DNA from: a virus
Lineage: Duplodnaviria > Caudoviricetes
Direction: 5' to 3' (one strand)
Virus record (IMG/VR): IMGVR_UViG_3300037419_000894
Location: 1 to 64,000 of that record
Length of the DNA stretch: 64,000 nt
Shown: positions 1 through 14,622 of the stretch, one piece after another
How positions within the stretch are numbered: the first letter of the stretch is position 1
Layout: every line of letters starts with the position of its first letter
Translations under genes and position numbers: made by a program
Notes under the pieces: model-generated
The model's database searches: none
What the model saw: the letters and a program-made list of their open reading frames with translations, nothing else
Told to the model about the DNA's origin: nothing

Positions 1-262
1 TTTATTTGCAACAGGTGAATTTGCGGTCCAAGGTGGCCACTTGTGTGGATCTGTGGTATATACGCGCCCGCGGACGTTTTATTAGTTTGCATCAGGTCAG
101 AGATGGGATTTATTTTATTTTTTTTTTGGGATGGGGGTTCAACAAGACTAGAGGGGTATACCCTTTTATACTGTTGATAGTCTATCAGCGGAGGACTAGG
201 ATGATGTGCAGATTTCCACCCCGGCCCGCTGATGCACAGAATTTGGGCAGTTTACTTACGGA

Positions 263-1254: not shown

Positions 1255-1380
1255 GACCGGGCTGCTACGCTTGCAGCATGCAAAGCAGAAGGTATTAACC
1301 CGGCTACCGCACAAACGCAGTATGCAAAGTACAAAAAGCTCCAGCAACAACAGCAACAGCAGCAAGAAGTAGAAGCATAA
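919..1380 (+). CDS. First early gene; Ala/Gln-rich protein with C-terminal putative DNA-binding domain (paralog family member 1)
   Basis: AAAGGG 8 nt before ATG; C-terminal GINPATAQTQYAKYK matches ORFs at 5805, 31746, 32589. Confidence 0.8.
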   Translation: MAKHTNTSNNTNAQANNAAALAARVQANNAYVRMQQRIAAVQAQRAAKHAARITARKQAAYMQAVQQLAAQYGVPVPNTMSVRAYNNAQKHAPSAVQGACARVHAIAAQYNGDRAATLAACKAEGINPATAQTQYAKYKKLQQQQQQQQEVEA

Positions 1381-1393
1381 TGCAACCGACCGC

Positions 1394-1418
1394 ACCCTGA
1401 CCCCAAGCGGGTCAGGGT
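1394..1418 (+). terminator. Hairpin after gene 919-1380, possible terminator or stabiliser
   Basis: Perfect 10-bp stem ACCCTGACCC/GGGTCAGGGT; weak U-tract. Confidence 0.45.
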
Positions 1419-1626
1419 ATTTCCACAAAGTAGCAATAATACACCAGTTTAGGCTAATCAAACACTTTGGGCCCGTAAAATGCGATACCTTACAAGTAAC
1501 GTTTCACGCACTAGGGCCCCGCATGCCCACGTGACAGGTGGCATGTGACTGCATCTTACCATAAAGGCCCTTCGGGCTATAGGGTGCAGTCACTGTACAA
1601 CATGCGTATATGATAGGAGAAATAAC

Positions 1627-1875
1627 ATGAACAAAGTCAACACCCCGGGCCATCAATTCCCAAATAACAAATACGTCAACACCTTCGCCTTGCTGCTTGG
1701 TATTACCTATGCAGCCCACGACGGTGTTAAGCGTAATGCAGTCGATGCGGAGTTGGAATTGCACGCACGCAAGCTAGTTGTGCGCGATTACATCCAAGAT
1801 AATCGCTTACCCGAAACTATCACCAAGGAACAGTCGGGCGCAATCATGCAAGCTTTTGTGTACTTCTATCTGTAA
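1627..1875 (+). CDS. Hypothetical early protein
   Basis: AGGAG RBS, 82 aa. Confidence 0.8.
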   Translation: MNKVNTPGHQFPNNKYVNTFALLLGITYAAHDGVKRNAVDAELELHARKLVVRDYIQDNRLPETITKEQSGAIMQAFVYFYL

Positions 1876-1924
1876 AGCAATTTACTAGCTATGCGTGCAT
1901 GGCTAGTGAGTGCGCTTTTGCACT
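1874..1924 (+). ncRNA. Junction pseudoknot motif copy E1
   Basis: AAAGC, 6-nt linker, hairpin 1885-1906, hairpin AGTGC-[GCTTTT]-GCACT whose loop complements AAAGC. Confidence 0.75.
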
Positions 1925-1941
1925 TGACAGGAGAAACAACT

Positions 1942-2238
1942 ATGAACACCTTTGACCCACGCACTGTAGTACCGTTCGTGAACGTAAAGCAATACATTCA
2001 CGCTGTACTGCAAGAAAACAACGTGTATGACCCTGAACTTGGGGATGACCAGTATTTCCTCGTTATGTACAATGCACGTGAAAAGCTGATTACTGACTGG
2101 CTGGACACGAACTACGGGGAGGACATCGAGGACTATGATGAGTTCTGCGTCCCTATGCACGAAATACATGATGTGTTTAACCACTACATGAAGTATGTGG
2201 AATACCTCATGTGGAACACAATTGCTAACAAGAAGTAG
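1942..2238 (+). CDS. Hypothetical acidic early protein
   Basis: GGAGA RBS before ATG 1942. Confidence 0.8.
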   Translation: MNTFDPRTVVPFVNVKQYIHAVLQENNVYDPELGDDQYFLVMYNAREKLITDWLDTNYGEDIEDYDEFCVPMHEIHDVFNHYMKYVEYLMWNTIANKK

Positions 2239-2295
2239 AGCCCTAGCTTATGACCACACTCTCACGGGTTGGTCATAGTCGAGCGCTCTTGCTCG
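2237..2295 (+). ncRNA. Junction pseudoknot motif copy E2
   Basis: AGAGC ... CGAGC-[GCTCTT]-GCTCG; first hairpin contains TGACCACAC. Confidence 0.75.
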
Positions 2296-2313
2296 GTACT
2301 ATAGGAGAATAAT

Positions 2314-2484
2314 ATGATTATGTTCCGTGGAATGGGTATCACGCATATTGTTGCAGGCGTGGTCCTGTGCGTAGCCCAAGCAATTGGCGTCAACATGGGG
2401 CCTGGTGACACGAACCTTATCATCGAGTCACAATTGTTTGGCGGCCTGTTTATGGCCGCGATTGGTTTCAAATTCAAGCTCTAA
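2314..2484 (+). CDS. Small membrane protein (56 aa, not in ORF track)
   Basis: AGGAGA RBS; MIMFRGMGITHIVAGVVLCVAQAIG...LFGGLFMAAIGFKFKL; two hydrophobic segments. Confidence 0.7.
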   Translation: MIMFRGMGITHIVAGVVLCVAQAIGVNMGPGDTNLIIESQLFGGLFMAAIGFKFKL

Positions 2485-2529
2485 GAGTTCTAGCGTTAGC
2501 CTTTGGGCTAACTCGAGCGCTCTTGCTCG
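2483..2529 (+). ncRNA. Junction pseudoknot motif copy E3
   Basis: AAGAGT ... GTTAGCC/GGCTAAC hairpin ... CGAGC-[GCTCTT]-GCTCG. Confidence 0.75.
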
Positions 2530-2556
2530 CAACCACCACATGAAAGGAGAAGCAGC

Positions 2557-2703
2557 ATGCACATTATCTGGTATCAACTCCTAAATGAAGAGACTGGTAA
2601 GCAGTACAAGATTGAATGCGAGCGGTTGGAAGAGGCTCAACTCGTCTGGGACTCGCTGGTCTACCTTCGCAATGCATACCGGGTCACCTGTAAGCGTCCG
2701 TAA
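2557..2703 (+). CDS. Small hypothetical protein (48 aa, not in ORF track)
   Basis: AAGGAG RBS; MHIIWYQLLNEETGKQY...TCKRP. Confidence 0.7.
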   Translation: MHIIWYQLLNEETGKQYKIECERLEEAQLVWDSLVYLRNAYRVTCKRP

Positions 2704-2753
2704 GAGCAATTTACAATCTCAGCTCGCTGGGATTGCGAGTGCGCTTTTGCACT
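2702..2753 (+). ncRNA. Junction pseudoknot motif copy E4
   Basis: AAGAGC ... CAATCTCAG/CTGGGATTG hairpin ... AGTGC-[GCTTTT]-GCACT. Confidence 0.75.
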
Positions 2754-2779
2754 GCATTCCACAACCAAGGAGAATCAAA

Positions 2780-2977
2780 ATGGCACAAGAGAAAGCATCC
2801 CCATTCGCATCGCTGTTCGAGGCAACTAACAAGGTCTCGAACGACGACCAAATCATCTTCAAGCTTCCCAAGGCGCATCGCGAGGCCTTCGCCGAGCTCT
2901 GCAAGAAGCACAACACCGACATGTCGACTGTGCTTCGCAAGTTCGTGGCAGCGCAAGTGACTTCGAGCGAGGAGTAA
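2780..2977 (+). CDS. Ribbon-helix-helix (CopG/Arc-like) DNA-binding protein
   Basis: IIFKLPKAHREAFAELCKKHNTDMSTVLRKFV fits the strand-helix-helix pattern; AAGGAG RBS. Confidence 0.65.
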   Translation: MAQEKASPFASLFEATNKVSNDDQIIFKLPKAHREAFAELCKKHNTDMSTVLRKFVAAQVTSSEE

Positions 2978-2981
2978 TGCC

Positions 2982-3239
2982 ATGACCACACAACAGACTT
3001 ACACTGTGGTCATCAACGAGTACCAGCGCAACATGCTGGCAGACATCCTGCAAGCTGTTTGTGCGCGCGACGATCTTAAGGATTTTCGCGACGTACTTAA
3101 GTCTCACGCTGGTGATGACAGCGTCTTTCTTGGCGAGGACAGCATGTACGAGGAAATGGAGACTTTCCTTGCGATGTTGAACGACATGCCACTCGCCGAA
3201 CGTTCTACACCGGGTTGCACTCACGGCTTCTGTTGCTAA
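2982..3239 (+). CDS. Hypothetical protein, probable paralog of 13741-14001
   Basis: GGAG RBS; shared I-x-E-x-QR-x2-L and ML-x2-[ML]P...G-x2-H patterns. Confidence 0.75.
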   Translation: MTTQQTYTVVINEYQRNMLADILQAVCARDDLKDFRDVLKSHAGDDSVFLGEDSMYEEMETFLAMLNDMPLAERSTPGCTHGFCC

Positions 3240-3242
3240 CGT

Positions 3243-3292
3243 AAAGTAATCTCCTGCCTTAGCGTGCTAGGGCAGTGGATGCACTTTGCATC
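3243..3292 (+). ncRNA. Junction pseudoknot motif copy E5
   Basis: AAAGT ... GATGC-[ACTTT]-GCATC; compensatory change relative to E1. Confidence 0.75.
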
Positions 3293-3311
3293 TCAACCTA
3301 AAGGAGCTATC

Positions 3312-3572
3312 ATGAAACTCGACGACAACCAAGTAGCAACCATTAGCCTTCAGGAACTGCACGACATCTTGGGCAACGGTGATCTTGGTATCACTGACCC
3401 AGCAACTGGCCAGCTCATGCTGCCTGCAGGATTCGAACTGGAGGTCATTGCTATGGACCCACAGACCGAAGGGAACATGAACAAGATCATGAACCGACTG
3501 AATGCTGTGCGCGACGAGCTCGCTAAACTTGACTCTGCGTTCCACGACGAGTTCGACGGCGCATACTGCTAG
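3312..3572 (+). CDS. Hypothetical acidic protein
   Basis: AAGGAG RBS before ATG 3312. Confidence 0.8.
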   Translation: MKLDDNQVATISLQELHDILGNGDLGITDPATGQLMLPAGFELEVIAMDPQTEGNMNKIMNRLNAVRDELAKLDSAFHDEFDGAYC

Positions 3573-3620
3573 AGTAATCTTACACCTCAGCGTGCTGGGG
3601 TGTTGGATGCACTTTGCATC
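3571..3620 (+). ncRNA. Junction pseudoknot motif copy E6
   Basis: AGAGT ... ACACCTCAG/CTGGGGTGT hairpin ... GATGC-[ACTTT]-GCATC. Confidence 0.75.
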
Positions 3621-3651
3621 GTCCCACCACAACAAATCCAAGAGGCTAAAA

Positions 3652-3855
3652 ATGTTAAAAATCAAAGTCTACTTCTACACCGCAGCATTCGCAGCAGTGC
3701 TCGCGGCAATTTATGGCATCAAGGCTGCGCTGAGCGGTTTGGAACGTGACCCTGTCAACGGCCCACTGTGTACAGCATTTACGATGGTTTCAATTGCTTT
3801 GTACATGATGTGCCTGGAAGCGAAGCAGCAGCTCAAACTCACTAAAGGAGAATAA
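3652..3855 (+). CDS. Small membrane protein
   Basis: GAGG RBS; two hydrophobic helices. Confidence 0.7.
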   Translation: MLKIKVYFYTAAFAAVLAAIYGIKAALSGLERDPVNGPLCTAFTMVSIALYMMCLEAKQQLKLTKGE

Positions 3856-3856
3856 T

Positions 3857-4132
3857 ATGCCTATCGCAGAACGCCAAAAATCCGCAGAAGCTAAGCCCTT
3901 GGACCAAATGACTATCCGGGAGCTTGCACTCACCATCCGCAATGCGTGGCCCAAGCCATACTTCGGCGCCAAGCCTTACATCGAGGCGATGCTGACGCTC
4001 GAGAAACTGAGCGACATGTATTTCTACGACAGCGGCCGCGACATCGTCACGTATTTCCTCGCGAACGCAGGCACATGGCGCGGCGGCATTGCTCAGATGG
4101 TCAAGGCTGAGCTCAAGCGCCGCCTGAAGTAG
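3857..4132 (+). CDS. Hypothetical phage protein
   Basis: AAGGAG RBS; 91 aa. Confidence 0.85.
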   Translation: MPIAERQKSAEAKPLDQMTIRELALTIRNAWPKPYFGAKPYIEAMLTLEKLSDMYFYDSGRDIVTYFLANAGTWRGGIAQMVKAELKRRLK

Positions 4133-4133
4133 T

Positions 4134-4192
4134 AAGAGTAATCTACAAGCTCGTGACCACACATCGCGGGCTTGTGGGTGCGCTCTTGCACC
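4134..4192 (+). ncRNA. Junction pseudoknot motif copy E7
   Basis: AAGAGT ... hairpin 4145-4175 with ACCACAC in its loop ... GGTGC-[GCTCTT]-GCACC. Confidence 0.75.
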
Positions 4193-4213
4193 TCCACCCA
4201 CAAAGGAGAAACT

Positions 4214-4432
4214 ATGACTACTCATATTATCAAATGCGACGAACACGGCGACGCCACCCTCTACGGTGAACTTCTTATTTGCCGTTACCTTGCAGGCGAC
4301 TGCGACACGATCGACTTCAAGAACCCAAATATGACGAACTTGAAGCATGCCCTGTACGATCTCCGCGAATGCAGCGATAAGATCAAGTACAGCGACAATT
4401 TCTCGATCGACGGCGTCGTCTTTACTGTTTAA
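4214..4432 (+). CDS. Hypothetical protein
   Basis: AAGGAG RBS before ATG 4214. Confidence 0.8.
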   Translation: MTTHIIKCDEHGDATLYGELLICRYLAGDCDTIDFKNPNMTNLKHALYDLRECSDKIKYSDNFSIDGVVFTV

Positions 4433-4449
4433 CAACAAGGAGAATTAAA

Positions 4450-4878
4450 ATGAGCCACACTATCGATTACAGCGCCCTTGAAGGTGACGCAAAACGCGAA
4501 GCAGCCATGAAAGATATCAAATTCTGGCTGGGCGAGGACACATTCAAGCGGATGCAAGCAAGTGTCGTGGCGGAGTACAAAGACAAGCCTTTCAGTCTTG
4601 AAACCTTCCGCTTCAGCGCATCGTTTGCAGGTGTCCAAGGTTACCCGGTCCAGGCCTGGTTCGAGACCGTTGTGGCGGAGGCTAAGATGGTTGCTATCAA
4701 GGGCGTGCGCGCCGACGGCATTGAAGTCTGGTACACCGGCAAAGCGGATGCAGAGTGGATCTCTGTATTTTCGGACGACGCCTTCATGGGCTACAACCTC
4801 GAGGGCGCCAAACGCAAGGCTGAGATCTTGAATCACTCGAGCACCATGACCGGCATCACTTTCGCGCCAGACGTGTAA
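4450..4878 (+). CDS. Hypothetical protein
   Basis: AAGGAG RBS; 142 aa. Confidence 0.85.
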   Translation: MSHTIDYSALEGDAKREAAMKDIKFWLGEDTFKRMQASVVAEYKDKPFSLETFRFSASFAGVQGYPVQAWFETVVAEAKMVAIKGVRADGIEVWYTGKADAEWISVFSDDAFMGYNLEGAKRKAEILNHSSTMTGITFAPDV

Positions 4879-4925
4879 AGCTGCAATGAAAGCCTCCACG
4901 CGGGGCTTTCGTGGCAATTTTGCCA
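4877..4925 (+). ncRNA. Junction motif copy E8 (imperfect pseudoknot pairing)
   Basis: AAAGCT ... GAAAGCC/GGCTTTC hairpin ... TGGC-[AATTTT]-GCCA; one mismatch. Confidence 0.5.
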
Positions 4926-4946
4926 GTCCCACCTAAGGAGAATCAA

Positions 4947-5144
4947 ATGGCTGTACATATCTGGATGGATGAAACATCTGGAGAAATCTCGATCAGTGCT
5001 TTTGAACCTGAAAGCACATTCTACGAAGCAAACCACATCATCTTGGTTGAAGATCGTGGCGGGAAAGTGAACAAACACCCATCGGTGCTCAACATCCTGC
5101 AGAATGTGTTGGAGCAAGCAGGCGTTCAAGTTATTCGTGATTAA
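4947..5144 (+). CDS. Hypothetical protein
   Basis: AAGGAG RBS before ATG 4947. Confidence 0.8.
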   Translation: MAVHIWMDETSGEISISAFEPESTFYEANHIILVEDRGGKVNKHPSVLNILQNVLEQAGVQVIRD

Positions 5145-5164
5145 ATTTTAACAAGGAGAATCAA

Positions 5165-5626
5165 ATGAAACAGAAACAAATCTTAGCCGTTATCGGTGGC
5201 GTCACCTTCACGAGCCTGCCTATTGGCGAGAAAGAGGCGCAGCATGTCCTAGACAGCTTCAGCCGCGCAGCCCCAAATTGCGATCCGCAAATCGTCGATG
5301 CCCAACCCGTGACCACACCCATCCGGAATGAGGATGTCGCGGCTGCTGTAAAAGCCGGACTGAAGAGTTATGATCGAGAGCTCTTAGCTCGAGGCAACAA
5401 TCTCGACGTTCTGCCAGCGAATCTGCTCAAGAACCTTGTGGATTACTACGTTGAAATGGGCGCGGCTCGCGACGAAACGGCTGCTCGTGCACTGCTGCGC
5501 ACCGCCTCCTTCGACGGTCTGCTCCGGGCATTCTGTGCATGGAACGGATACGGCGTGAATCCTGGTTCCTTGGCTAGTGCTGTGCGCCAGCTGTACAAAG
5601 CTGTTCATGGCGATAGCGATTCTTAA
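5165..5626 (+). CDS. Hypothetical protein
   Basis: AAGGAG RBS; 153 aa. Confidence 0.85.
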   Translation: MKQKQILAVIGGVTFTSLPIGEKEAQHVLDSFSRAAPNCDPQIVDAQPVTTPIRNEDVAAAVKAGLKSYDRELLARGNNLDVLPANLLKNLVDYYVEMGAARDETAARALLRTASFDGLLRAFCAWNGYGVNPGSLASAVRQLYKAVHGDSDS

Positions 5627-5706
5627 TAAAAAGCGTCCGCCCGGTTGTTAAATCGCAAGCCCACCGGGCATTTTTGCTGTACAATGGAGTTTGTGTTGTG
5701 CAAAAG

Positions 5707-5766
5707 CCGCGCTGATGAGACCTAAAAGGTCGAAACTTCCAGCCCGAAGGGGTTGGAGGTCCGCGG
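5707..5766 (+). ncRNA. Hammerhead ribozyme, type I (HHR-1)
   Basis: Stem I CCGCG/CGCGG; CTGATGA 5712-5718; stem II GACC-TAAAA-GGTC; GAAA 5732-5735; 10-bp stem III; GTC cleavage triplet 5759-5761. Confidence 0.92.
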
Positions 5767-5804
5767 ATGTCCGCGAATAACCACACCACAGGAGTATTAC
5801 CATC

Positions 5805-6509
5805 ATGGCAACTGACAAACAAGCAGCTCGCGCAGGTCGTAACGTCAAAGCAGCCGACGCAGTCGTGGCAAACGGCACGAAAGCTGCCAAAGCCCCGCGC
5901 AAAGTCCCGGCTGGCACACTGTCCGAGAAGCCGAAAATGGCTGAACCGACCAATCCTCCGGTCGAAATCACGGAAGAGCAGCGCAAGGCTGACCGTCGCG
6001 CTGACGACATCACCAAGAACGACGCAATGGCCAGGTTCGTGGCACAGCAGACTGGCGAAACCAAGCCGAAAGTCGACATAGCTGCGTTCGAGGCTGAAAT
6101 GGCTGCGCTGAAAGCTAAGTACGGCGTCACCGCTGAAGTGAAGGTCAAGGCCTCGAAAGGTGATAAAATCGTCCAGAACGGCGTGACCAGGCCTGCAGCC
6201 AGCACCCTATGCGGTAAAATCTGGGCCGCAGCCGACCGCATCAGCCAGCGCATTCACAGCGTGGCGCCGATCGCACTGCTGCGCGAGGATCCGGAGCTGA
6301 AGGGTGTGAATGACCACACTATCAAGACGCAGTACGCGAAATGGCGTGCGTTCAACAACGTCTCGGGCCGGCTCCCGCGCATCCAGGCTGTGCACCAGCC
6401 GGCGGAAGGCATCTACAACGAAGCCCTCCCGCATATCGTGCAACCGCAGGCAACTGAGCCTGCCAAAAGCGAGGAGCAGCCGGCTAGCGACGCACCAGCA
6501 GCTGAATAA
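5805..6509 (+). CDS. Ala/Lys-rich protein with putative DNA-binding C-terminal domain (paralog family member 2)
   Basis: CAGGAG RBS; GVTRP...CGKIWAAAD...GVNDHTIKTQYAKWR. Confidence 0.85.
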   Translation: MATDKQAARAGRNVKAADAVVANGTKAAKAPRKVPAGTLSEKPKMAEPTNPPVEITEEQRKADRRADDITKNDAMARFVAQQTGETKPKVDIAAFEAEMAALKAKYGVTAEVKVKASKGDKIVQNGVTRPAASTLCGKIWAAADRISQRIHSVAPIALLREDPELKGVNDHTIKTQYAKWRAFNNVSGRLPRIQAVHQPAEGIYNEALPHIVQPQATEPAKSEEQPASDAPAAE

Positions 6510-6531
6510 GCCTTCGGACTTGGTCCACACA

Positions 6532-6553
6532 GGGAGCTTCGGCTCCCTTTTTT
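6532..6553 (+). terminator. Rho-independent terminator
   Basis: GGGAGC-TTCG-GCTCCC followed by T6. Confidence 0.9.
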
Positions 6554-6583
6554 ATTGACTGTAACCACACTCAGGAGTATTAC

Positions 6584-6844
6584 ATGTTCGAATTACAAAG
6601 CATTGAAATCGTCAATAGTGCTCTGGCTGAAATTGAACCTGCAATGTTGAAAGCGTGCCTTGCCAAGGTTGCCGACCAAATCGTGAACAGCGGCCTGCGC
6701 AATCGTGCAAGGATTGTGATCTCCAAGCGCACTTCAACAGGTTGGCTGGAATACCCGATCACAATCTTCAATGAGGACCATGTGGCAATATACATTGTAG
6801 CGATACAGCGCACGGTCGATAGCGAAGTTGAGTTTCATTCGTGA
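6584..6844 (+). CDS. Hypothetical protein
   Basis: CAGGAG RBS; 86 aa. Confidence 0.8.
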   Translation: MFELQSIEIVNSALAEIEPAMLKACLAKVADQIVNSGLRNRARIVISKRTSTGWLEYPITIFNEDHVAIYIVAIQRTVDSEVEFHS

Positions 6845-7290
6845 CCACACTCCTGCGGTGCGAATAGGTGCTGTTTGACCTGCTCGCGCTGAGGTTCTGG
6901 TGTTGTGAATTGCATCAATTCATACCCTGTGACAGAGGGTATGTGTGGGAGCAATTAAATACGGGTGGCTACCCTAGTCACCATGCGTTTCACCCTACTC
7001 CGACTAGGGGGGTGCTCATTTGCCCGATTTGTAGGCATCCGACTACCCTCCCCTTACTTTGCCTAAATACCGAGCAAAAATGGTGTTCCAATAGACAGAA
7101 TATGGTATAAATAAGTAATTAAGATTTTTGGTGCTCTGTATAGGGAAAAGTAGTAGTAAATAGTAGTAATGCAATAAAAACGTTAGTCTTTGAAATAAAT
7201 ACAGGAGTAGGTAGGGTTTACTTTTACCCCTCGCACCCCCAACCCGCGCAAAACTCCTAATGCAATGGTCCTACCCCAACATTTTAAATG

Positions 7291-7299
7291 TGCTACAAT
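7291..7299 (+). promoter_or_regulatory. Extended -10 promoter element
   Basis: TGcTACAAT about 30 nt upstream of ORF 7332. Confidence 0.5.
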
Positions 7300-7331
7300 A
7301 GGGGCTCCCATACTTTATTTAAAGGTGCCAA

Positions 7332-8150
7332 ATGCTACAGCTCACTACCCACGTCTCCCAAGAGACTGCCTTTCGTTTCGATTATTTTCCATACACCTTC
7401 GGACACTATTGCCCGATTCGTGTTTGGGTGGACTCCAAGACCGGTAAGGGCCAGCGCCTAGCGTACCGCACGTTCAACCCAATTGACCGTGAGTGGACCA
7501 AACCCAAGTTGTCCGCATACTTCGATCTGGTATTCCTGTTCGAAAAACATGGGTTCGTCACCGAGCAGCTAATCAGCTTCCAAAGCATGCCTCTCGACGA
7601 CCTTCTGCACATTGTCTCGCACTACTACGTAACGTCAGAGCAAAAGCAGCGCATCCAAGCCTACCTAGCAACCGTGGCCAATGTAGGCCGCACAAACTGG
7701 GCAAGTCCTACAGAGCATGCGCAACATCCTGGAGGTTACGAGGTACAAGAGTTATCCATCACAAACAGCGACCCGCTGCTCACAACCAGCTCGCACCTCA
7801 TTGTTCCTGAACCACCTGCGATTGAGCAAAAGCAACTCGGGCGCCCGCCTAGCAAAAACTTGTGGAACGCGCCAAAGGTAGTGGAAGCCACACCAGACAC
7901 AAGTGTGGTCAACGCTCCCAAGCCTTGGTTGCGCGGTCCTCAGCAGCCTGCAATGTCTCAAGCAGCTACAACGTCCCTGCAAAAGCTCATTGATCAAATA
8001 CACGATCATACAGCACTGTTACTTAAGCGCGGAGACGAGCGTGACGAGTATTACATCAATCGAGGTCGTCAAAACCCGGACAACTTCAAGAGCGAAACAC
8101 AAGTGCGCAATTACGCCGCAGTTCTAGGCATCACACTCATCGAAGATTAA
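7332..8150 (+). CDS. Hypothetical protein with Pro-rich linker
   Basis: 272-aa ORF, AAGGT RBS. Confidence 0.8.
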   Translation: MLQLTTHVSQETAFRFDYFPYTFGHYCPIRVWVDSKTGKGQRLAYRTFNPIDREWTKPKLSAYFDLVFLFEKHGFVTEQLISFQSMPLDDLLHIVSHYYVTSEQKQRIQAYLATVANVGRTNWASPTEHAQHPGGYEVQELSITNSDPLLTTSSHLIVPEPPAIEQKQLGRPPSKNLWNAPKVVEATPDTSVVNAPKPWLRGPQQPAMSQAATTSLQKLIDQIHDHTALLLKRGDERDEYYINRGRQNPDNFKSETQVRNYAAVLGITLIED

Positions 8151-8174
8151 CCACACAACCCGAAAGGAACCATC

Positions 8175-8369
8175 ATGTACAACATCTTAGTCACAACCTT
8201 CGTACTCCGCGAGCAACAAATCGTCACCGTGGCTTCTGCCGTAATAAGCGCACCAACAACCGCCGAGGCCGACGCAATCCTTAAGAACGCCAAGAAAACT
8301 TGGTTTGCCAATGACAACCACATCATCCGCATGTTCGAACCGCTGTACAATCTCGGCAGCCCGATCTAG
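8175..8369 (+). CDS. Hypothetical protein
   Basis: AAAGGA RBS. Confidence 0.75.
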   Translation: MYNILVTTFVLREQQIVTVASAVISAPTTAEADAILKNAKKTWFANDNHIIRMFEPLYNLGSPI

Positions 8370-8377
8370 GACACCAA

Positions 8378-8623
8378 ATGACCACAATCGCAAAACGCCT
8401 CTCTAAGCACCTCGGCGGCAAGTGGGCCTACGACAATCTGTCTACTTGGTGGTGCGACGACAATAAGCGCAGCGTGTCCCGTTGCAGCGCGGGCGTCGAT
8501 GAGTTCGATAACGATCTCGGCCCTGCCCAATATTGGTTGTACGGCGACGGCAACCCCCGTCGTGCGGAGCAGTACATGTTCAAGCGACCATCACTCTTAA
8601 CACTCTTAAAGGACTCCCAATGA
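8378..8623 (+). CDS. Hypothetical protein
   Basis: AGGA RBS; 81 aa. Confidence 0.75.
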   Translation: MTTIAKRLSKHLGGKWAYDNLSTWWCDDNKRSVSRCSAGVDEFDNDLGPAQYWLYGDGNPRRAEQYMFKRPSLLTLLKDSQ

Positions 8624-8766
8624 ACCCGACCACAGTCTTCATCCACAGCAGTGGTATCCTTGCTGCCTACCTAGCTATCAGTTACACTACTCGCGGCGAG
8701 TACCTCCTAGCTTCGATTGAGGCAACCATTATGCTGTTCTTCGCCTCCCGCGAACCTAAGCCCTAA
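8620..8766 (+). CDS. Small membrane protein
   Basis: ATGA overlap with upstream stop; hydrophobic. Confidence 0.6.
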   Translation: MNPTTVFIHSSGILAAYLAISYTTRGEYLLASIEATIMLFFASREPKP

Positions 8767-8833
8767 AGCCCTAGCCAATGCCGACTAACCGCACGCCGGC
8801 ATTCCCGAGTGCTTTATCACCAAAGGAGCTACA

Positions 8834-9052
8834 ATGAAATTCAAACCATCGGAGCAAGTTGCCCACCCCCACATCCAACAATTGCGCAGTTCTGCAAGTT
8901 GGCTCGGTTCGTCCTTGCAGCACATTTATCTGAATTACGGTCTGTCCTACAAGCACCTCATGGAACGGCGCAACCAGCTGCTCAAAGGTCCAGGTCTCAC
9001 TGACAATGATCGCGAGCTGCTTAAAACGCTGGACGACATCCTTCACAGATAA
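8834..9052 (+). CDS. Hypothetical protein
   Basis: AAGGAG RBS. Confidence 0.8.
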   Translation: MKFKPSEQVAHPHIQQLRSSASWLGSSLQHIYLNYGLSYKHLMERRNQLLKGPGLTDNDRELLKTLDDILHR

Positions 9053-9070
9053 GCACAGATGGACCGCAAC

Positions 9071-9129
9071 AAGGTTCCACTGTTAGACGCTTACCACACA
9101 TGGCGGCGTCTAACGGGGCAATCTTGCCC
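9071..9129 (+). ncRNA. Junction pseudoknot motif copy E10
   Basis: AAGGTT ... GTTAGACGC/GCGTCTAAC hairpin ... GGGC-[AATCTT]-GCCC; 6-bp covaried pairing. Confidence 0.7.
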
Positions 9130-9144
9130 GACACAGGAGGTTAT

Positions 9145-10320
9145 ATGAAACGTTTCATTAGCACTCTCGCTGCGGCGATGGTTGCTGCTGGCGTCATGGC
9201 AGCTCCAAAGTCTGTAACACCCACTAAGACCGGAGCATTAACAGTCGCGTCTGGTCAAACGTGGTTTAGCGCAAACGGCATCACTTACGTTCCGGTGGGT
9301 CCGAAGTCGTATCCCGAAGGTGATTGGTATGTCCTCTGTGCTTACGATACTGTGGGCACCCTCAATTGCAAACGGCTCGTTCCAGTCTGGAGCATGAAAG
9401 GCATTTTGGTTCAGTCGCAACTTGGGGCGGATGGTACTCCAATCACAACCTACGCGCAAACTGAGATGTACAACGGCCAGGATGTCAGCGCGATGTCTCC
9501 AGTGGAAAAGGTGAATCTAGCGAAGTCTGTTCTAGACAGCCAGAGCCTAGCGATCGCCGTATTCGAAGCAAGGTTGGCTGACGCCATTACACAGTTCGAC
9601 AATGGTTGCGCCGCGGACGTCGGTTGCGAGACTTCGGCAAGTGCGATGCGCAGTGGTCGGGCGCCAAGCAGCTCGAGTGCCAAGGCAAGCAGCAGCGGTG
9701 CGAAGGCAGATTCGGAGCCTGAGCCTAGGAGCGCAAAACCTGCCGGTGGTAAACGCATGCAAACGGTGGAGGTTCCGGGGCAGATTCCCGACCCGGAATA
9801 CCCGCCCAACATGGGTGATCCTGTGCCTGATCCTGTGGCGGACCCAACTGCGCCGTCTGGTGATGGTGGCAACGACGCTGGCGGGCTGCCTGATCAGCCA
9901 GATGGTAGCGGAAGCTGGCGGAAATACAAGATGCCGAGCGAAACTTGCGTCGCGACTCCGCCGCTCCCCGGTATGCCTGTCGTCGGTGGTGGTTGCGTCG
10001 TCAGGGTTCCTGCACCGCACCCTGTTATTCCGCCGGACCCGGAGACCCAGCCGTTGCCTCCCCCGCCTACAGATTGGTGCAGGATCTTCCCGGGAGCCTG
10101 CGCCGGAGCTGATGGACTGCCTCCCAACGTCCCGAACCCGATGCGCGATATGTGCAATTCGCGGTTCTTGGTGAAGGCTATGCGTTGCTACCAGAAGCGC
10201 CTGGATGATCCAGCGCACGTGACCGACAGCGAAACGCGGGTCTGTGTTGCTGGAGCTCAGGCTCAGCTGGCGATCTGCGCCGCAGGAGCTCCGCCGGCGC
10301 TTGCTGCACCTAAGCAGTAA
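9145..10320 (+). CDS. Secreted Pro-rich, Cys-rich protein of unknown function
   Basis: AGGAGG RBS; signal peptide MKRFISTLAAAMVAAGVMA; 12 Cys; Pro-rich second half. Confidence 0.75.
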   Translation: MKRFISTLAAAMVAAGVMAAPKSVTPTKTGALTVASGQTWFSANGITYVPVGPKSYPEGDWYVLCAYDTVGTLNCKRLVPVWSMKGILVQSQLGADGTPITTYAQTEMYNGQDVSAMSPVEKVNLAKSVLDSQSLAIAVFEARLADAITQFDNGCAADVGCETSASAMRSGRAPSSSSAKASSSGAKADSEPEPRSAKPAGGKRMQTVEVPGQIPDPEYPPNMGDPVPDPVADPTAPSGDGGNDAGGLPDQPDGSGSWRKYKMPSETCVATPPLPGMPVVGGGCVVRVPAPHPVIPPDPETQPLPPPPTDWCRIFPGACAGADGLPPNVPNPMRDMCNSRFLVKAMRCYQKRLDDPAHVTDSETRVCVAGAQAQLAICAAGAPPALAAPKQ

Positions 10321-10379
10321 TCTGTAACCACGCCCGGTCGGAGATCATCCCGGCCGGGATTTTATCCACAGGAGGTACA

Positions 10380-10571
10380 ATGGACCCAAAGAAGCAACAC
10401 CGGTTACTCCGCAGTCAGGGAACCGACTGGTGGTACAGGGAACTGGCTGAACAAGCAGCTAACGCACGCATGGAGCGCGAAATTGCTGAATCGTTCAACC
10501 GTCCCCATCTGTACTTGATCGCGCACAACCCGCACATCCCATCCAAACCTAAATACAGGAGGCCAATGTGA
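10380..10571 (+). CDS. Hypothetical protein
   Basis: AGGAGG RBS. Confidence 0.75.
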   Translation: MDPKKQHRLLRSQGTDWWYRELAEQAANARMEREIAESFNRPHLYLIAHNPHIPSKPKYRRPM

Positions 10572-10945
10572 ACAAAATAACCATCTCTTGCGTACCCAAA
10601 TTCATCATGAACTTGTCGCTGGCAGAATGCCAGTTAATCCGAGCGCTAGCAAGTTGGCACTATGACGTAAAATGCAGAAATGCTGGCCACGTAGGCGGGT
10701 TCCTTTACGGTTGGATGAATCAGCTAACGCCTGCTGACGAGAACGACACCGAAGAAAGGTTCGTTAGCGCTTCGTTCGGTGAGCTCGACTTAGTCCTTAA
10801 GATCTTAGAGGTTATGCACTCTTGGCGAGATGATGCTGAGCGCAAAGCCCTTCGCAAAATAGACCTTCAAATAAGGACTGCGCTCAAAGAATCTAACCGC
10901 ATCATGCCAACTCTCAGCTTTGAAGTCGATCTGTCCCACATCTAA
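10568..10945 (+). CDS. Hypothetical protein
   Basis: Overlaps upstream stop; GGAGG RBS. Confidence 0.75.
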   Translation: MNKITISCVPKFIMNLSLAECQLIRALASWHYDVKCRNAGHVGGFLYGWMNQLTPADENDTEERFVSASFGELDLVLKILEVMHSWRDDAERKALRKIDLQIRTALKESNRIMPTLSFEVDLSHI

Positions 10946-10997
10946 AGCGAAAGCTAATGCTAGTTCCATGAGCTAGCATTGTCGAGCGCTTTGCTCG
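10944..10997 (+). ncRNA. Junction pseudoknot motif copy E11
   Basis: AAAGC ... AATGCTAG/CTAGCATT hairpin ... CGAGC-[GCTTT]-GCTCG. Confidence 0.75.
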
Positions 10998-11012
10998 TAA
11001 CAGGAGAAACAA

Positions 11013-11273
11013 ATGGAATTATCCAGAGCAGGTATGGTGTGGTCACAACAGGAGCTTGAACAACTCCGCACCAATTTCGGTTCAGGTATGGACCTTGAAG
11101 AGCTAATGCGGACGCAGGGTCGGTCTGCATACGCTATCATTGCGAAGCTTCAGGAGATGGGCTTGATTGTGCTGGTCGGCCGTAGCAGCTACCACAAGGT
11201 TGTTCCGGATGCGTGGATTACCTCCGAAGGTATCCACTTTATCAACAAGCAATCAAAGGGTGGCGCAAAATGA
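11013..11273 (+). CDS. Small Myb/SANT-like helix-turn-helix protein
   Basis: W-S-x2-E-x3-L...GRS-x2-AI-x2-KL pattern; CAGGAG RBS. Confidence 0.55.
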   Translation: MELSRAGMVWSQQELEQLRTNFGSGMDLEELMRTQGRSAYAIIAKLQEMGLIVLVGRSSYHKVVPDAWITSEGIHFINKQSKGGAK

Positions 11274-11590
11274 TCAACGCAAACCAAATACGACTCCAGC
11301 ATGTCACCGAGTTCCAACTTTGGGACGGCGAAATGACCGTGCATGCCTTTCAACATATCGGCGCCCACGGCTTCCCAAGCGCTGCAATCGTCATCACACG
11401 TATGGACGACCCAATCGAAACACGAGTGTGGTCAGGATACGGGCGTTACAAGCCTAGCGAAAAGCCAACTGAAGCTCACATGAGTCAGTGGATTGCAGAT
11501 CAACTTAATCGCTTAGCAACGGGCGCCTATGGCAGCACGTCAGCAATTGTTGAAATTCGTTCGCCTGATGTAAGGATCATCTATGGGTAA
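11270..11590 (+). CDS. Hypothetical protein
   Basis: ATGA overlap with upstream stop. Confidence 0.7.
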   Translation: MINANQIRLQHVTEFQLWDGEMTVHAFQHIGAHGFPSAAIVITRMDDPIETRVWSGYGRYKPSEKPTEAHMSQWIADQLNRLATGAYGSTSAIVEIRSPDVRIIYG

Positions 11591-11978
11591 GCACTACCGC
11601 GACCCGAAAGACAAGCCCACATTGTTGGAGCAACACTACAATGATGTGGACAAGTACCCGTCGCCTTACCACACTCTCAAAGACGTGTGCGAAGCACTGC
11701 TCAACGCTCCGGCCGACAGCGAGGGTGCACAGCGCGTGCTGTACGCTGTGCTAGTGCCTGAAAATCCGGTCCGCGACAAGCAAGCGCATTGCAGGTATTA
11801 TCTCACTTATGCAGGTGCTAAAGCTTGGATCGAAGGACATAACAGCACGCGCGTTACCAAGCAGAACGAAGGCAACAAGCGCAAGGCGAAATTGCTAGTG
11901 TACAGCCCTGATGAGATGCGTACCTACCTCATTCAACTTGCACCACAAAACAACGAGGGGAGCAATGAGTCTAGTTGA
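11583..11978 (+). CDS. Hypothetical protein
   Basis: AAGGA RBS; 131 aa. Confidence 0.75.
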   Translation: MGKHYRDPKDKPTLLEQHYNDVDKYPSPYHTLKDVCEALLNAPADSEGAQRVLYAVLVPENPVRDKQAHCRYYLTYAGAKAWIEGHNSTRVTKQNEGNKRKAKLLVYSPDEMRTYLIQLAPQNNEGSNESS

Positions 11979-12123
11979 CTTCTTATTCGAGAAACGCACC
12001 AAGCTCGAGCTAGCAAAAGAGCTTGCCAAGACGGCACACGAGAACGCAGCTCTGCGCAACCGCGTGTACGAACTTGAGCATGAGCTTTTCTGGCTCAAGG
12101 CAATCACACCACCACAGGAGTAA
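11965..12123 (+). CDS. Small coiled-coil protein
   Basis: GGGGAG RBS; heptad-like ELAKELAKTAHENAALRNRVYELE. Confidence 0.7.
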   Translation: MSLVDFLFEKRTKLELAKELAKTAHENAALRNRVYELEHELFWLKAITPPQE

Positions 12124-12233
12124 TTATGACTAATCCGACCAATCAAAAACAGCTCAAGTAGCGCCACAGCGTAAGCCCTTCAGTGGGCTTACTCGGTTGC
12201 ACTGCTGTCAATAACCACAACAGGGAGCTTACA

Positions 12234-12428
12234 ATGGAACAAGAAGAAATCTGGATTAACGGTGTGCAGTATGAAGCAAAGCGAGCAACGCTCAGCCACG
12301 GTTGCTCAGGTTGCGTAGCCTATCAACTGTTACCTAGCGGCTCGAGGTACATCAATCAGCAGTTGTGTGGTCAACTTCCGAAGTGTGTAGCACCTAATGT
12401 AGTCTTTACTCTCAAACAGGAGAAATAA
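12234..12428 (+). CDS. Small Cys-containing protein
   Basis: GGGAG RBS; CxxC plus two more Cys. Confidence 0.7.
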   Translation: MEQEEIWINGVQYEAKRATLSHGCSGCVAYQLLPSGSRYINQQLCGQLPKCVAPNVVFTLKQEK

Positions 12429-12908
12429 ATGCGTAAAGTTCAAATTCTGGCTCGTGAGCTCGATGCGGGCGACATCCTCGTCACGGACGATGCTCGCGAC
12501 GTTGTTACCCAAGTCATTGATACTGGTGAACCTCTGATCACCGTATGCGCAGCACGGTTAGGCCTGGGGAACTGCTCGGACTATCCTGTCAACTGGCATC
12601 GAGATTCGAAGGTCTTTGTCGAGCGTCCGCTGCCGAACCCAATGGATGGCTTGTATGCTATCGGTACGCCGGTGCTTGTGGACGTCGATGTGGACATGTT
12701 TCGCACTGGTGTAGTGTGCGGCGTAAGGGTGGAAACAAAGGTCGTCGCATCGCTTGTGAGCAACGTTACGCCTGAAAACGCAAGTTCAAATGTGCAATAT
12801 CAAATTATTTGGACCAAAGGGTCTGTAGGAACAAACCACCCTTGGTTCGAGCAACATCTCGTTAAGGCTACAGCATCTGAGTTTCATCAAATCAAAAAGT
12901 TCCTATAA
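12429..12908 (+). CDS. Hypothetical protein
   Basis: CAGGAG RBS; 159 aa. Confidence 0.8.
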   Translation: MRKVQILARELDAGDILVTDDARDVVTQVIDTGEPLITVCAARLGLGNCSDYPVNWHRDSKVFVERPLPNPMDGLYAIGTPVLVDVDVDMFRTGVVCGVRVETKVVASLVSNVTPENASSNVQYQIIWTKGSVGTNHPWFEQHLVKATASEFHQIKKFL

Positions 12909-12975
12909 CAGTGCTACAACGCAAGCTCCTGCCCATGCGGTGGGCTTGCTTGGTAACACTCACAAAGGAGGAAGT

Positions 12976-13263
12976 ATGAAACATACTACTGAAACAGAAG
13001 ATTTTGTCCTCGCAACCGAGGACGGCAAACAGTTCGTGCAGGTCAAGAGGGGTGCTTGGAATGATACACCGTACATCGAACTCACGACGGAGTTTGCGCG
13101 AGCTACTCCAATGAAGTCTGAGTCGGTCTTTCGGACGCACAGCATCACAATCAAAGATTATTGCGGAGCAACGCGCCGCATCCCAATTAAGATCACTCGC
13201 GTAGTCGAAGTGATGACTGAGGAGCTTAATTTTAACCTGCCTCCGGAGGACGGACATGGCTAA
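12976..13263 (+). CDS. Hypothetical protein
   Basis: AAGGAGG RBS. Confidence 0.8.
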   Translation: MKHTTETEDFVLATEDGKQFVQVKRGAWNDTPYIELTTEFARATPMKSESVFRTHSITIKDYCGATRRIPIKITRVVEVMTEELNFNLPPEDGHG

Positions 13264-13627
13264 CCCTGCGCACACTCGACGTGCTACAGCTCAGGAGGCT
13301 GTAGAATTTAATCAGATGCGGTGGCAGTCTAAAAACTGGCAGCGTCTGCATGAGTTGAGTCTGGAATTTGTTCGCACAGGTTCATTCAAGTGTAAAGAAG
13401 ACCAACAAGCTCACTCTGAAGTGACTAAGGCTTGGCATGCTGAACTTATGACTTCGAAGTTCCGCTTCGGGGCACATGGCTTGCAGGTGGTCAAAGAACG
13501 CAATGAGCGAGTTGTGCGCCCCAAGCGCACCGCAGGCAGGGCTTTTTACAGCCATTGTGAACTGTGCACAAGGCCTCTAGTTGGCGCAGAACGAAAGAGT
13601 CCTGCTTGTGCAGATTGCTCACCTTAA
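13256..13627 (+). CDS. Hypothetical protein with C-terminal zinc ribbon
   Basis: CELC...CADC; GGAGG RBS. Confidence 0.75.
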   Translation: MANPAHTRRATAQEAVEFNQMRWQSKNWQRLHELSLEFVRTGSFKCKEDQQAHSEVTKAWHAELMTSKFRFGAHGLQVVKERNERVVRPKRTAGRAFYSHCELCTRPLVGAERKSPACADCSP

Positions 13628-13681
13628 TTAACGGACCCAAATGCAGCATTGGTATCCGTGCGTGCGGGCGTATAACGCGCG

Positions 13682-13690
13682 TGTTATAAT
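13682..13690 (+). promoter_or_regulatory. Consensus extended -10 promoter element
   Basis: TGtTATAAT 50 nt upstream of ATG 13741. Confidence 0.6.
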
Positions 13691-13740
13691 GTTGTTTGCT
13701 GTACCTTTCACCTTGTAGTTCTACAATCAAAGGAACTAAG

Positions 13741-14001
13741 ATGACTAAAGTATCTGAAAAACGGCCCAACGGCCCGTTCGACCTGCGCATCAGCGAGCGG
13801 CAGCGTAAGCTGCTGGTGCGTGCGCTCACCGAAGGTTTGTCGGACGACTTCGTCCTGACACTCATGTCCGAGAACGCGCAGAGTGTGGTCATGGGCAACA
13901 ATCTCCAACAACTCCAAGAGTTGACCAGCATGCTCAGCACCCTTCCCGACAACAATGTAGCGGGCATGCTGCACGCTCTTTTGCATGCGAGCGAACGATG
14001 A
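13741..14001 (+). CDS. Hypothetical protein, probable paralog of 2982-3239
   Basis: AAGGA RBS; ISERQRKLL...MLSTLP...GMLH. Confidence 0.75.
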   Translation: MTKVSEKRPNGPFDLRISERQRKLLVRALTEGLSDDFVLTLMSENAQSVVMGNNLQQLQELTSMLSTLPDNNVAGMLHALLHASER

Positions 14002-14288
14002 CCACACAACAGCGCACAATCAAGACGGTTTACCGTTTTCAAGGCGAAGAGACCAAGGTGACCACAGCCTGCAATCCCAACCGCGCTGTCGCTAAATGCG
14101 TCGAGCACTTGCAAGTGAATGACTACGGCGCAACGGTTGCCGAGGTCTACGATCGCGAAAGCGGGGTTTTGCACGCCATTGTCAAGCGTAGCATTAACGG
14201 TAGCATTAACATTGCCTACCGTTACAACCCTGAAGACTTCAAACCCATGCGTCTGTCTCTCGGCGCACTGCTGGAGGAAAAGAAATGA
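13998..14288 (+). CDS. Hypothetical protein
   Basis: ATGA overlap; 96 aa. Confidence 0.75.
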   Translation: MTTQQRTIKTVYRFQGEETKVTTACNPNRAVAKCVEHLQVNDYGATVAEVYDRESGVLHAIVKRSINGSINIAYRYNPEDFKPMRLSLGALLEEKK

Positions 14289-14548
14289 CCACACCATCAT
14301 TCAGAACGCTCAAGGCGCTACGCATGTGGCACTGGCAGCAGATGAAGACGCACCGTGCAGAGCAAGACCGCTTGGAACGGCTTGTGGATCAATCAACTCG
14401 CGCGCACCACAAGAAAGAGTATCGCGAGGAGGCGCGTCAGCACCGCATGCTAGCAGACCTCCACCTATCTGCTGTGCAAGTGCTGAACGACAGTGTGCCT
14501 GGAACTGCTGAACAAGACTGCGCAGAGGAGGACGCTCAAAAGACTTAA
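14285..14548 (+). CDS. Hypothetical helical protein
   Basis: GGAGG RBS; ATGA overlap. Confidence 0.75.
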   Translation: MTTPSFRTLKALRMWHWQQMKTHRAEQDRLERLVDQSTRAHHKKEYREEARQHRMLADLHLSAVQVLNDSVPGTAEQDCAEEDAQKT

Positions 14549-14596
14549 AGTTCCAGCGTATGCCCTTCACCGGGCATACTCGGGCGCTTTGACCCG
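14547..14596 (+). ncRNA. Junction pseudoknot motif copy E12
   Basis: AAAGT ... GTATGCCC/GGGCATAC hairpin ... CGGGC-[GCTTT]-GACCCG (one bulge). Confidence 0.7.
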
Positions 14597-14622
14597 TAAC
14601 CTCCACAAACAAAGGAGCTTGT

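Follow-up and report, generated by a model that had tools for sequence, protein, structure and literature searches.

A repeated, covarying RNA element at the early gene boundaries of an uncultured siphovirus and its possible role in transcript processing

The early region and its repeated element

Here we analyzed bases 1-64000 (the window) of the 74,241-bp record of an uncultured siphovirus, IMGVR_UViG_3300037419_000894, and in particular an RNA element of 50-60 nucleotides (nt; approximately 55 nt) that is repeated on the plus strand at 13 gene boundaries. The window carries a tape-measure gene and the genes for a primase, a helicase and a family B DNA polymerase, whose closest cultured relatives (PaMx25/NP1-like) are only 46% identical, and a DNA comparison with known phages gave no match. 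Between approximately 1.6 and 19 kb lie small genes, all of them on the plus strand. The sequencing runs carrying the phage include eleven DNA runs from soil and rhizosphere, all with identical sequence and hence without natural variants, and the evidence on structure presented here is all comparative or thermodynamic.

A previous sequence-only reading of this DNA had listed 12 copies of the element at early gene junctions, all of which we found on the plus strand with the layout then described, including an imperfect copy at 4877 and a degenerate one at 8765, and we add a thirteenth at 12159-12207. Each copy begins with a U, which in most copies is the first base of a TAA or TAG stop codon, followed by a purine strand of 5-6 nt, a linker of 5-8 nt, a hairpin (h1) of 7-12 base pairs (bp; -7 to -15 kcal/mol in the window copies), a spacer of 0-5 nt and a second hairpin (h2) of 3-5 bp (4-5 bp in 11 of the 12 listed copies and 3 bp in the degenerate copy at 8765) whose loop of 5-6 nt is complementary to the purine strand. 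Downstream of h2 comes a C/A-rich stretch and then a strong ribosome-binding site (RBS). The primary sequences vary, as had been noted, but the copies are not free of similarity and fall into two subfamilies, A with the linker AAUYUA and B with the linker YYYAGC and often an h2 stem CGAGC/GCUCG. Among the genes at 1627-4947 a copy is present in every gap of 66-81 nt and in no junction of 0-20 nt, and the gaps carrying copies measure 57-92 nt overall. Descriptor and covariance-model searches found no copy on the minus strand or beyond 14.6 kb in the window, and a descriptor made of structure only matched nine copies on the plus strand and none on the minus strand.

The copies are given here with the initial U and purine strand, the linker, h1, h2 (as 5' strand, loop and 3' strand) and the score from one of two covariance models without a pseudoknot term, R1 for subfamily B and R2 for subfamily A. 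Those of subfamily A, all scored by R2, lie at 1873-1924 (U AAAGC, AAUUUA, h1 of 9 bp, AGUGC-GCUUUU-GCACU; 65.3 bits), 2701-2753 (U AAGAGC, AAUUUA, h1 of 9 bp, AGUGC-GCUUUU-GCACU; 65.8 bits), 3242-3292 (U AAAGU, AAUCUC, h1 of 9 bp, GAUGC-ACUUU-GCAUC, the real stop codon being 5 nt upstream; 63.7 bits), 3570-3620 (U AGAGU, AAUCUUA, h1 of 8 bp, GAUGC-ACUUU-GCAUC; 67.3 bits) and 4133-4192 (U AAGAGU, AAUCUA, h1 of 11 bp with TGACCACAC in its loop, GGUGC-GCUCUU-GCACC; 63.7 bits). Subfamily B, scored by R1, is represented at 2236-2295 (U AGAGC, CCUAGCU, h1 loop with TGACCACAC, CGAGC-GCUCUU-GCUCG; 33.6 bits), 2482-2529 (U AAGAGU, UCUAGC, h1 of 7 bp, CGAGC-GCUCUU-GCUCG; 42.1 bits), 10943-10997 (U AAAGC, GAAAGCU, h1 of 11 bp, CGAGC-GCUUU-GCUCG; 33 bits) and, just upstream of the helicase gene, 14546-14596 (U AAAGU, UCCAGC, h1 of 8 bp, CGGGC-GCUUU-G(A)CCCG; 56.3 bits), and by the degenerate copy at 8764-8820 (R1, 27.7 bits), in which the long-range helix between purine strand and loop is shifted by one (UAAAG/CUUUA) and h2 has 3 bp. 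The imperfect copy at 4876-4925 (U AAAGC, UGCAAU, h1 of 9 bp, UGGCA-AUUU-UGCCA; R1, 16.3 bits) pairs poorly over the long range, the 5-bp stem of its h2 being capped by an AUUU tetraloop, and the ortholog at 2484-2532 of the related contig L275 is imperfect likewise. A divergent copy at 9070-9129 (AAGGUU/AAUCUU; R2, 32.1 bits) lies 19 nt past the stop codon, and the thirteenth, degenerate copy at 12159-12207 (AGCGC against GCACU with 4/5 pairs, weak h2; R1, 31.7 bits) lies 36 nt past it.

The 9-mer TGACCACAC is over-represented genome-wide, with eight exact plus-strand occurrences in the first 16 kb, and it stands in the apical loop of h1 at window positions 2251 and 4154 and at approximately 2945 of the related contig L285. 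The h1 loop at window position 9093 carries the variant TTACCACAC.

Covariation of the long-range pairing

Because a joint MAFFT alignment of all copies was structurally inconsistent, two subfamily alignments and a coordinate-based parse were used instead. The proposal that the purine strand and the h2 loop form a covarying long-range helix was confirmed in both subfamilies. In the alignment made with R1 (18 sequences, no pseudoknot term) 98.9% of the cells of this helix are paired, both partners have changed in four of its five pairs, none of 500 shuffles reaches its score and control helices slid along the alignment reach 17-61%, while in the plain MAFFT alignment of subfamily A the helix is 100% paired. 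At least five contiguous long-range pairs are found in 30 of the 34 copies of the family, the exceptions being the copy at 4877 and its ortholog, the copy at 8765 with its register shifted by one, and the copy L275_7436. The haplotypes include AAAGC/GCUUU, AGAGC/GCUCU, AAAGU/ACUUU, AGAGU/ACUCU, AAGGUU/AAUCUU, AACAU/AUGUU, AAAAGU/ACUUUU and AAGAGC/GCUCUU, and in the copy with a TGA stop, GAAAGU/ACUUUC, an extra C in the loop provides the partner for the stop-codon G. At the junction before the helicase gene the terminal pair in six orthologs is U.G, U-A, U.G, C-G, U-A and C-G, and never C.A. When the 20 distinct haplotypes from the 34 copies were re-paired at random the observed total was never reached in 200,000 trials (p < 5e-6), and cognate strands and loops paired better than shuffled partners with p of approximately 3e-4 in the 13 copies first parsed (12 in the window and one outside) and with p of 0.004-0.014 when each cluster of duplicates was represented once; as the copies of one genome are paralogs and the relatives amount to about six lineages, these and the other shuffle tests given here overstate independence. 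G.U pairs recur, for example as U.G in h1 in 6/7 subfamily A copies, and the copies lie on the plus strand only, so that the claim of a strand-specific structure at the RNA level stood as well.

A second pairing and two alternative folds

The sequence-only reading had overlooked a further, middle helix, formed by the linker with the spacer and the 5' strand of h2 (h2a). In subfamily B this helix is 96.3% paired, 3/3 pairs have changed on both sides and 0/500 shuffles reach its score; for subfamily A the paired share is 80%, and three pairs show two-sided changes. The hairpin h2 itself, formed by h2a and its 3' strand h2b, occurs in 16 distinct stem combinations with a cognate duplex energy of -4.8 against -1.6 kcal/mol for non-cognate duplexes (p < 5e-5; control pairings were not significant), and it is 100% paired in seven subfamily A copies. 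Linker position 2, h2a position 4 and h2b position 2 vary together as C/G/C, U/A/U and G/C/G. On this comparative evidence all four helices covary, and h2a has two selected and mutually exclusive partners, the linker and h2b.

Two folds follow from these pairings, with h1 and the long-range helix common to both. Fold 1 is an unbranched, irregular rod made of the long-range helix, the linker:h2a helix and h1, with approximately 18 bp, approximately 21 nt per arm and about two helical turns. Fold 2 consists of h1 and h2 (h2a:h2b), the long-range helix being either open or closed as an H-type pseudoknot. Nested folding gives one long hairpin in most copies rather than h1 and h2, with minimum free energies of -21.6 to -35.9 kcal/mol and z values of -1.5 to -5.5 (the rods at 4133-4192 and 9070-9129 reach -35.9 kcal/mol, z -5.5, and -31.8 kcal/mol, z -4.7), and when h2b was left out each of the 27 copies parsed first gave one unbranched rod, with 14-23 bp and arms 15-30 nt long (21 on average). 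The pseudoknot that had been proposed as the structure of the element is supported by covariation of both its helices in the order S1a-S2a-S1b-S2b, but it is only one of two folds, and the nearest-neighbour model prefers the rod in most copies. Formation of both pseudoknot helices at once is predicted to leave the h2 loop fully paired with 0-1 nt to spare, and the nested rod would compete with it. In the related contig L285 a variant at 3377-3422 keeps the rod and lacks h2b, and is followed, in place of an RBS, by TGGTATAAT, an extended -10-like box (to 3470).

Distribution of the element and absence from known families

The models R1 and R2 recover all regular copies at E values of 1e-5 to 1e-17, the copy at 4877 being reached at only 2e-4, over a short stretch and with the filters off. 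In 858 kb of unrelated viral contigs, all of which contain the 15-nt h2 core, they score only a true copy in L086, a GC-rich phage that has one almost identical copy of the element and no detectable protein shared with the phage of the window. The element stands at syntenic junctions in five related phage groups (21 copies) besides this one copy in the unrelated L086, and the family totals 34 copies in six phage groups. The contigs L275/L276, L277, L278, L279 and L280, with helicase homologs at 64-66% identity, are syntenic and have the element at the same junctions, and the copy at 14546 before the helicase gene has orthologs in five relatives. The 72.5-kb contig L285, which came from a pattern scan of metagenomes, holds seven copies within 5.4 kb, and the near-identical contigs L237 and L238 added no variation. 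The element was not found in the relatives of a 406-aa protein of the window, L002/L003 (68%) and L239/L240 (35%), nor in the more distant helicase relatives L281-L284 (58-59%). Scanning IMG/VR with the h2 core alone gave 112 mostly chance matches and the true copy in L086, a looser two-gap pattern gave chance matches among the matches listed, and a stricter pattern gave L086 only; a pattern scan of a genome collection gave 33 chance matches, none with the layout of the element. No relatives of the protein flanking the copy in L086 were found.

Rfam 15 had no match in the 64-kb window at gathering thresholds, no match on any copy at E values up to 10 (positions 1-16000 and 1860-4210) and none on the relatives' copies at E values up to 0.1, and the families covered include hammerhead, pistol, twister, twister-sister, hatchet, HDV-like (hepatitis delta virus), the RAGATH families held in Rfam and preQ1. 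The expectation that the element matches none of the hammerhead, pistol, twister and HDV cores is in line with this outcome. The comparative evidence identifies the element as a well-supported structured RNA family absent from Rfam, its distinctive features being an arm embedded in the stop codon and a strand with two covarying partners. It is a module acting in cis between cistrons of the early and middle operons, with compensatory changes in four helices and its first arm inside a stop codon.

The stop codon, the ribosome and the Shine-Dalgarno sequence

The element's initial U doubles as the first letter of the stop codon that ends the upstream open reading frame (ORF) in 9/13 window copies, in 13/14 copies of the gene-called relatives and in 7/7 copies of L285. 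The copies at 3243 and 4134 have a TAA of their own just after the real stop codon, and the exceptions to the overlap are the two window copies 19 and 36 nt past the stop and a copy at 1958 of L275, which belongs to a 5' leader and has no ORF before it. From the first nucleotide of the stop it is 11-14 nt to hairpin h1, which is about where a bacterial ribosome with a stop codon in its A site has its leading edge. Because of this distance, a terminating ribosome would cover the 5' arm of the rod and force fold 2. From the folding models we infer that the rod would be the ground state of the untranslated RNA.

Masking 13 nt in imitation of the ribosome raised the predicted opening of the Shine-Dalgarno (SD) sequence in some copies with a short spacer (0.001 to 0.25, 0.04 to 0.79 and 0.03 to 0.78), in which h2b (CUC) pairs with the SD (GAG). 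Over the copies masked, predicted SD accessibility did not change uniformly (the mean went from 0.09 to 0.15, and the value rose in 10 copies and fell in 11), and in the copies with a long spacer the SD is enclosed in either state by a separate anti-SD hairpin. This small conserved hairpin consists of an anti-SD strand (CCUCC, UUCC or AUUCU), a C/A-rich loop of 9 nt (ACAAACAAA or ACAUACAAA) and the SD, and its stem covaries as CUCC/GGAG, CCUC/GAGG and UUCC/GGAA. It is seen, for example, at window positions 4193-4210 and 14597-14620 and at most RBSs of L275-L280, and also at junctions without the element.

A possible intercistronic processing and stability signal

Our favoured explanation, to which we would give a probability of roughly 40%, is by analogy that the element serves the processing and stability of the polycistronic early and middle RNA, as an intercistronic signal like those of T7. 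The ideal substrate of RNase III has 22 bp, mismatches restrict its cutting to one strand, and cuts in a single strand leave stabilising 3' hairpins, five such signals being present in the T7 early RNA (PMC3867540). In the phage analyzed here, 13 co-oriented intercistronic copies would each form an irregular hairpin of about two turns with mismatches, for which cleavage is predicted. In the mechanism that we propose the rod would form at the cistron boundary in untranslated RNA, and once a ribosome reached the stop codon upstream the long-range and middle helices would come apart while h1 stayed closed, which would free h2a for h2b. An endonuclease of the RNase III type, specific for double strands, would cleave the RNA close to the foot of h1, so that h1 would cap the 3' end of the upstream message and h2 the 5' end of the downstream one. 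A cut at this place, with h1 left upstream and h2 downstream, would account for all four conserved helices. The variant in L285 that retains the rod, with neither h2b nor a following RBS, is also in line with this explanation. The resemblance to the T7 signals (R0.3, R0.5, R1, R1.1 and R1.3) lies in several related, irregular hairpins of about two turns between the genes of one early polycistronic RNA, whose internal mismatches would here, too, probably confine the cut to a single strand, with a protective hairpin remaining at the 3' end. In contrast to the T7 signals, the element has its 5' arm begin within the stop codon, and h2b is available to its 3' arm as another covarying partner, giving an alternative hairpin or pseudoknot, a feature not described for T7; we claim no sequence similarity. 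If the element is a processing signal, uncultured soil siphoviruses would segment their early transcripts with both hammerheads and sites for a host nuclease, where T7 does so with RNase III alone.

Several points weigh against this explanation. The long-range helix is A/U-rich and weak, with duplex energies of -1.6 to -6.7 kcal/mol, and the rod has conserved 1x1 mismatches. The mean energies favour the rod, at -22.0 kcal/mol against -18.5 kcal/mol for the two-hairpin state without the pseudoknot, with less than 1 kcal/mol between the two in several copies, but the energy model leaves the pseudoknot unscored, so that the rod may not be the dominant fold. Part of the covariation of the middle helix could be explained by the shared descent of a few lineages. 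The rod was judged by known RNase III substrates, and the specificity of the host's RNase III may differ; no RNA run is listed among the sequencing runs that carry the phage. Finally, some 30 of the 34 copies start inside a stop codon, which the T7 signals do not, and this points to a link with translation termination for which a purely nucleolytic model has no need.

Alternative explanations

That link is the core of the main rival to a processing signal, namely that the element is a cleavage-free switch that senses translation termination and insulates the translation of the next cistron, a defined form of the ribosome termination structure (RTS), and this we regard as possible although rather unlikely. 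RTSs are stable mRNA structures right after the stop codon in operon junctions, enriched at gaps above 25 nt (PMC7518266), and the role suggested for them is to shield the next cistron from re-initiation (Chemla et al. 2020, PMC7518266). The element, too, forms a stable fold from the stop codon in gaps of 57-92 nt, from which insulation is predicted; an RTS is a statistical signal in folding energy, whereas the element is a defined, repeated and covarying family with two exclusive folds. A switch of this kind explains best the overlap with the stop codon, the extra loop C that matches a TGA stop, the start of h1 close to the leading edge of the ribosome, and the opening of the SD on masking in some short-spacer copies. 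However, the effect on the SD is not uniform, the anti-SD hairpin keeps the SD in both states of the long-spacer copies, the leader copy in L275 has no upstream ORF to sense and two window copies stand well past the stop, and an insulating hairpin alone would need neither h2b nor the long-range helix. The trp, erm and cat attenuators are alike in that a middle strand (here h2a) has two exclusive partners and that a ribosome on strand 1 would choose the fold, but in the element the ribosome terminates a full-length gene and not a leader peptide, and there is neither a terminator nor a uniform SD-masking helix. Should the element be a termination sensor, it would be a natural and portable insulator or coupler of cistrons, of interest for operon design. 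Among the functions suggested by the sequence-only reading, an RNA-processing class and a coupling element hence remain the best readings, while put-like antitermination has found no support.

The many copies in one operon, the conserved loop and closing pairs (GC-loop-GC) and the conserved h1 apex of subfamily A (a U.G wobble and GCGUGC) would also suit an operator at which a phage or host RNA-binding protein, such as an early-gene repressor or an antitermination factor, reads the h2 loop (GCUYUU/ACUUU) or the h1 apex. The loop even resembles boxA (in lambda CGCUCUUA), whose consensus is a single-stranded GCUCUU(U)A box. Against such an operator, which we hold to be improbable, the loop varies (AAUCUU, AUGUU, ACUCU) with its complementarity kept, pointing to pairing rather than to protein read-out, the boxA-like letters are not conserved across copies, and a Pfam scan of ten larger proteins of the early and middle region gave nothing informative and recognised no RNA-binding protein. 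A boxA or nut-type site proper was rejected, as the loop varies (GCUUU, ACUUU, AAUCUU, AUGUU, ACUCU) and is flanked by stems. Slightly less probable still is that the pseudoknot is the active form of a new, minimal class of self-cleaving RNA, or recruits a nuclease only after upstream termination, in which case the element would record upstream translation and cut accordingly. The related suggestion of a new self-cleaving ribozyme class with the pseudoknot as its active fold, which like the hammerheads nearby would cut the operon RNA between genes, draws on the same type of junction in this phage and its relatives, the covarying pseudoknot topology, an h2 that might form the hairpin at the 5' end of a cleaved product, like that at the hammerhead junctions, and the position of the element outside all Rfam families. 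Nevertheless, self-cleavage, which the sequence-only reading had placed among its candidates, received no positive sign: few unpaired nucleotides are conserved across the subfamilies (the linkers are AAUYUA and YYYAGC, and the spacer between h1 and h2 varies from 0 to 5 nt), and the competing plain rod is predicted to be more stable. In pistol (RF02679) the loop of P1 pairs with a 3' strand, next to the helices P2 and P3 and a conserved core with a G-U cleavage site. The element shares with it the small size, the association with phages and a hairpin loop pseudoknotted with a single strand beside another hairpin, but its single strand lies 5' of the hairpin, P2 and the conserved core with the G-U site are missing, and Rfam gave no match to pistol at E 10. 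Compared with the consensus structures, its helix order is the reverse of pistol and unlike the HDV or twister folds. With few conserved unpaired nucleotides and a helix order unlike pistol or HDV, nothing points to a catalytic core, and we give this ribozyme class little chance. A weak intrinsic terminator or attenuator, formed by h1 and the linker:h2a hairpin followed by the U-rich GCUUUU and acting on polymerases without a trailing ribosome, would explain the A-rich 5' and U-rich 3' strands around a GC-rich hairpin, as in many terminators, and a ribosome on the stop codon would block the extended hairpin. We consider it very improbable, because no copy passes a terminator scan (at least 5 U in 8 after a GC-rich stem) that does list clear terminators with long U runs in these operons at 6531 and 10333, the U run, of only 3-4 nt, is in many copies broken up (CUCUU, AUGUU) and begins 2-3 nt past the stem, and h2b, which lies downstream of the supposed stop point, covaries. 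Equally remote in our estimation is the idea that the copies are recombination boundaries at the DNA level that shuffle small early genes in the manner of the PeSL cassettes of T4-type phages, with RNA structure being secondary. The PeSLs are likewise repeated stem-loop spacers between small early genes that may favour shuffling, the copies here flank small accessory genes, the gene content between conserved copies differs among relatives, and an almost identical copy occurs in L086, a phage without protein similarity to this one. PeSLs, however, carry an early promoter, which the copies lack (promoter-like sites occur at chance level and none inside a copy), whereas the pairings here covary; the compensatory changes and G.U pairs in four helices amount to selection on RNA pairing, and all copies are co-oriented with transcription, although a role in recombination is compatible with an RNA function. 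A preQ1-I riboswitch, an RNase P/tRNA-like mimic, a CRISPR-repeat decoy, type III toxin-antitoxin RNA repeats and a ribosome bypass of the gene-60 type were rejected on account of sequence variability or the lack of an Rfam match.

Hammerhead-like elements and other neighbours

Hammerhead-like elements are found at conserved junctions, in the window at 5707-5775 and 16279-16332, in L275 at 3133-3184, 8578-8623 and 11814-11891, and in further relatives at 3334-3422 of L277, 750-891 and 3451-3541 of L278, 2953-3099 of L279 and 3526-3668 of L280. The statement that hammerheads occupy the same kind of junction as the element therefore stood as regards the junctions, which are comparable, but the elements stay under the Rfam thresholds (35.3 bits where 56.3 are required, and 27.8-28.7 where 34 are) and the example at 16.3 kb has no Rfam match, although the cores look complete by eye (CUGAUGA or CUGAAGA, GAAA and GUC). 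In the first hammerhead-like type the predicted cleaved product starts with a hairpin of 4-5 bp, as the 3' strand of stem I re-pairs with a downstream copy of its 5' strand, and this 5'-terminal hairpin is seen in the window and in four relatives. By analogy it appears to be the same design as h2, and would thus support a processing role of the element.

A second intergenic hairpin family has the form ACAAC-G-hairpin (GYAAGCY...)-CUUG-GUUGU, with a lower stem and no h2, and is located at 12908-12976 in the window, 5582-5645 in L275, 1184-1263 in L280 and approximately 800-870 in L279. Intrinsic terminators with long U runs at 5627-5680, 6531-6556 and 10333-10368 split the region into several transcription units, and downstream of the terminator at 5.65 kb come a TGnTACAAT box and, after it, the first hammerhead-like element. 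About 189 nt are repeated at the ends of the record (1-189 and 74053-74241), which suggests either a circular assembly overlap or a short terminal repeat. In the 71.9-kb relative L275, two tRNA genes (Rfam scores of 76 and 55 bits) lie on the minus strand at 272-463, upstream of the early region.

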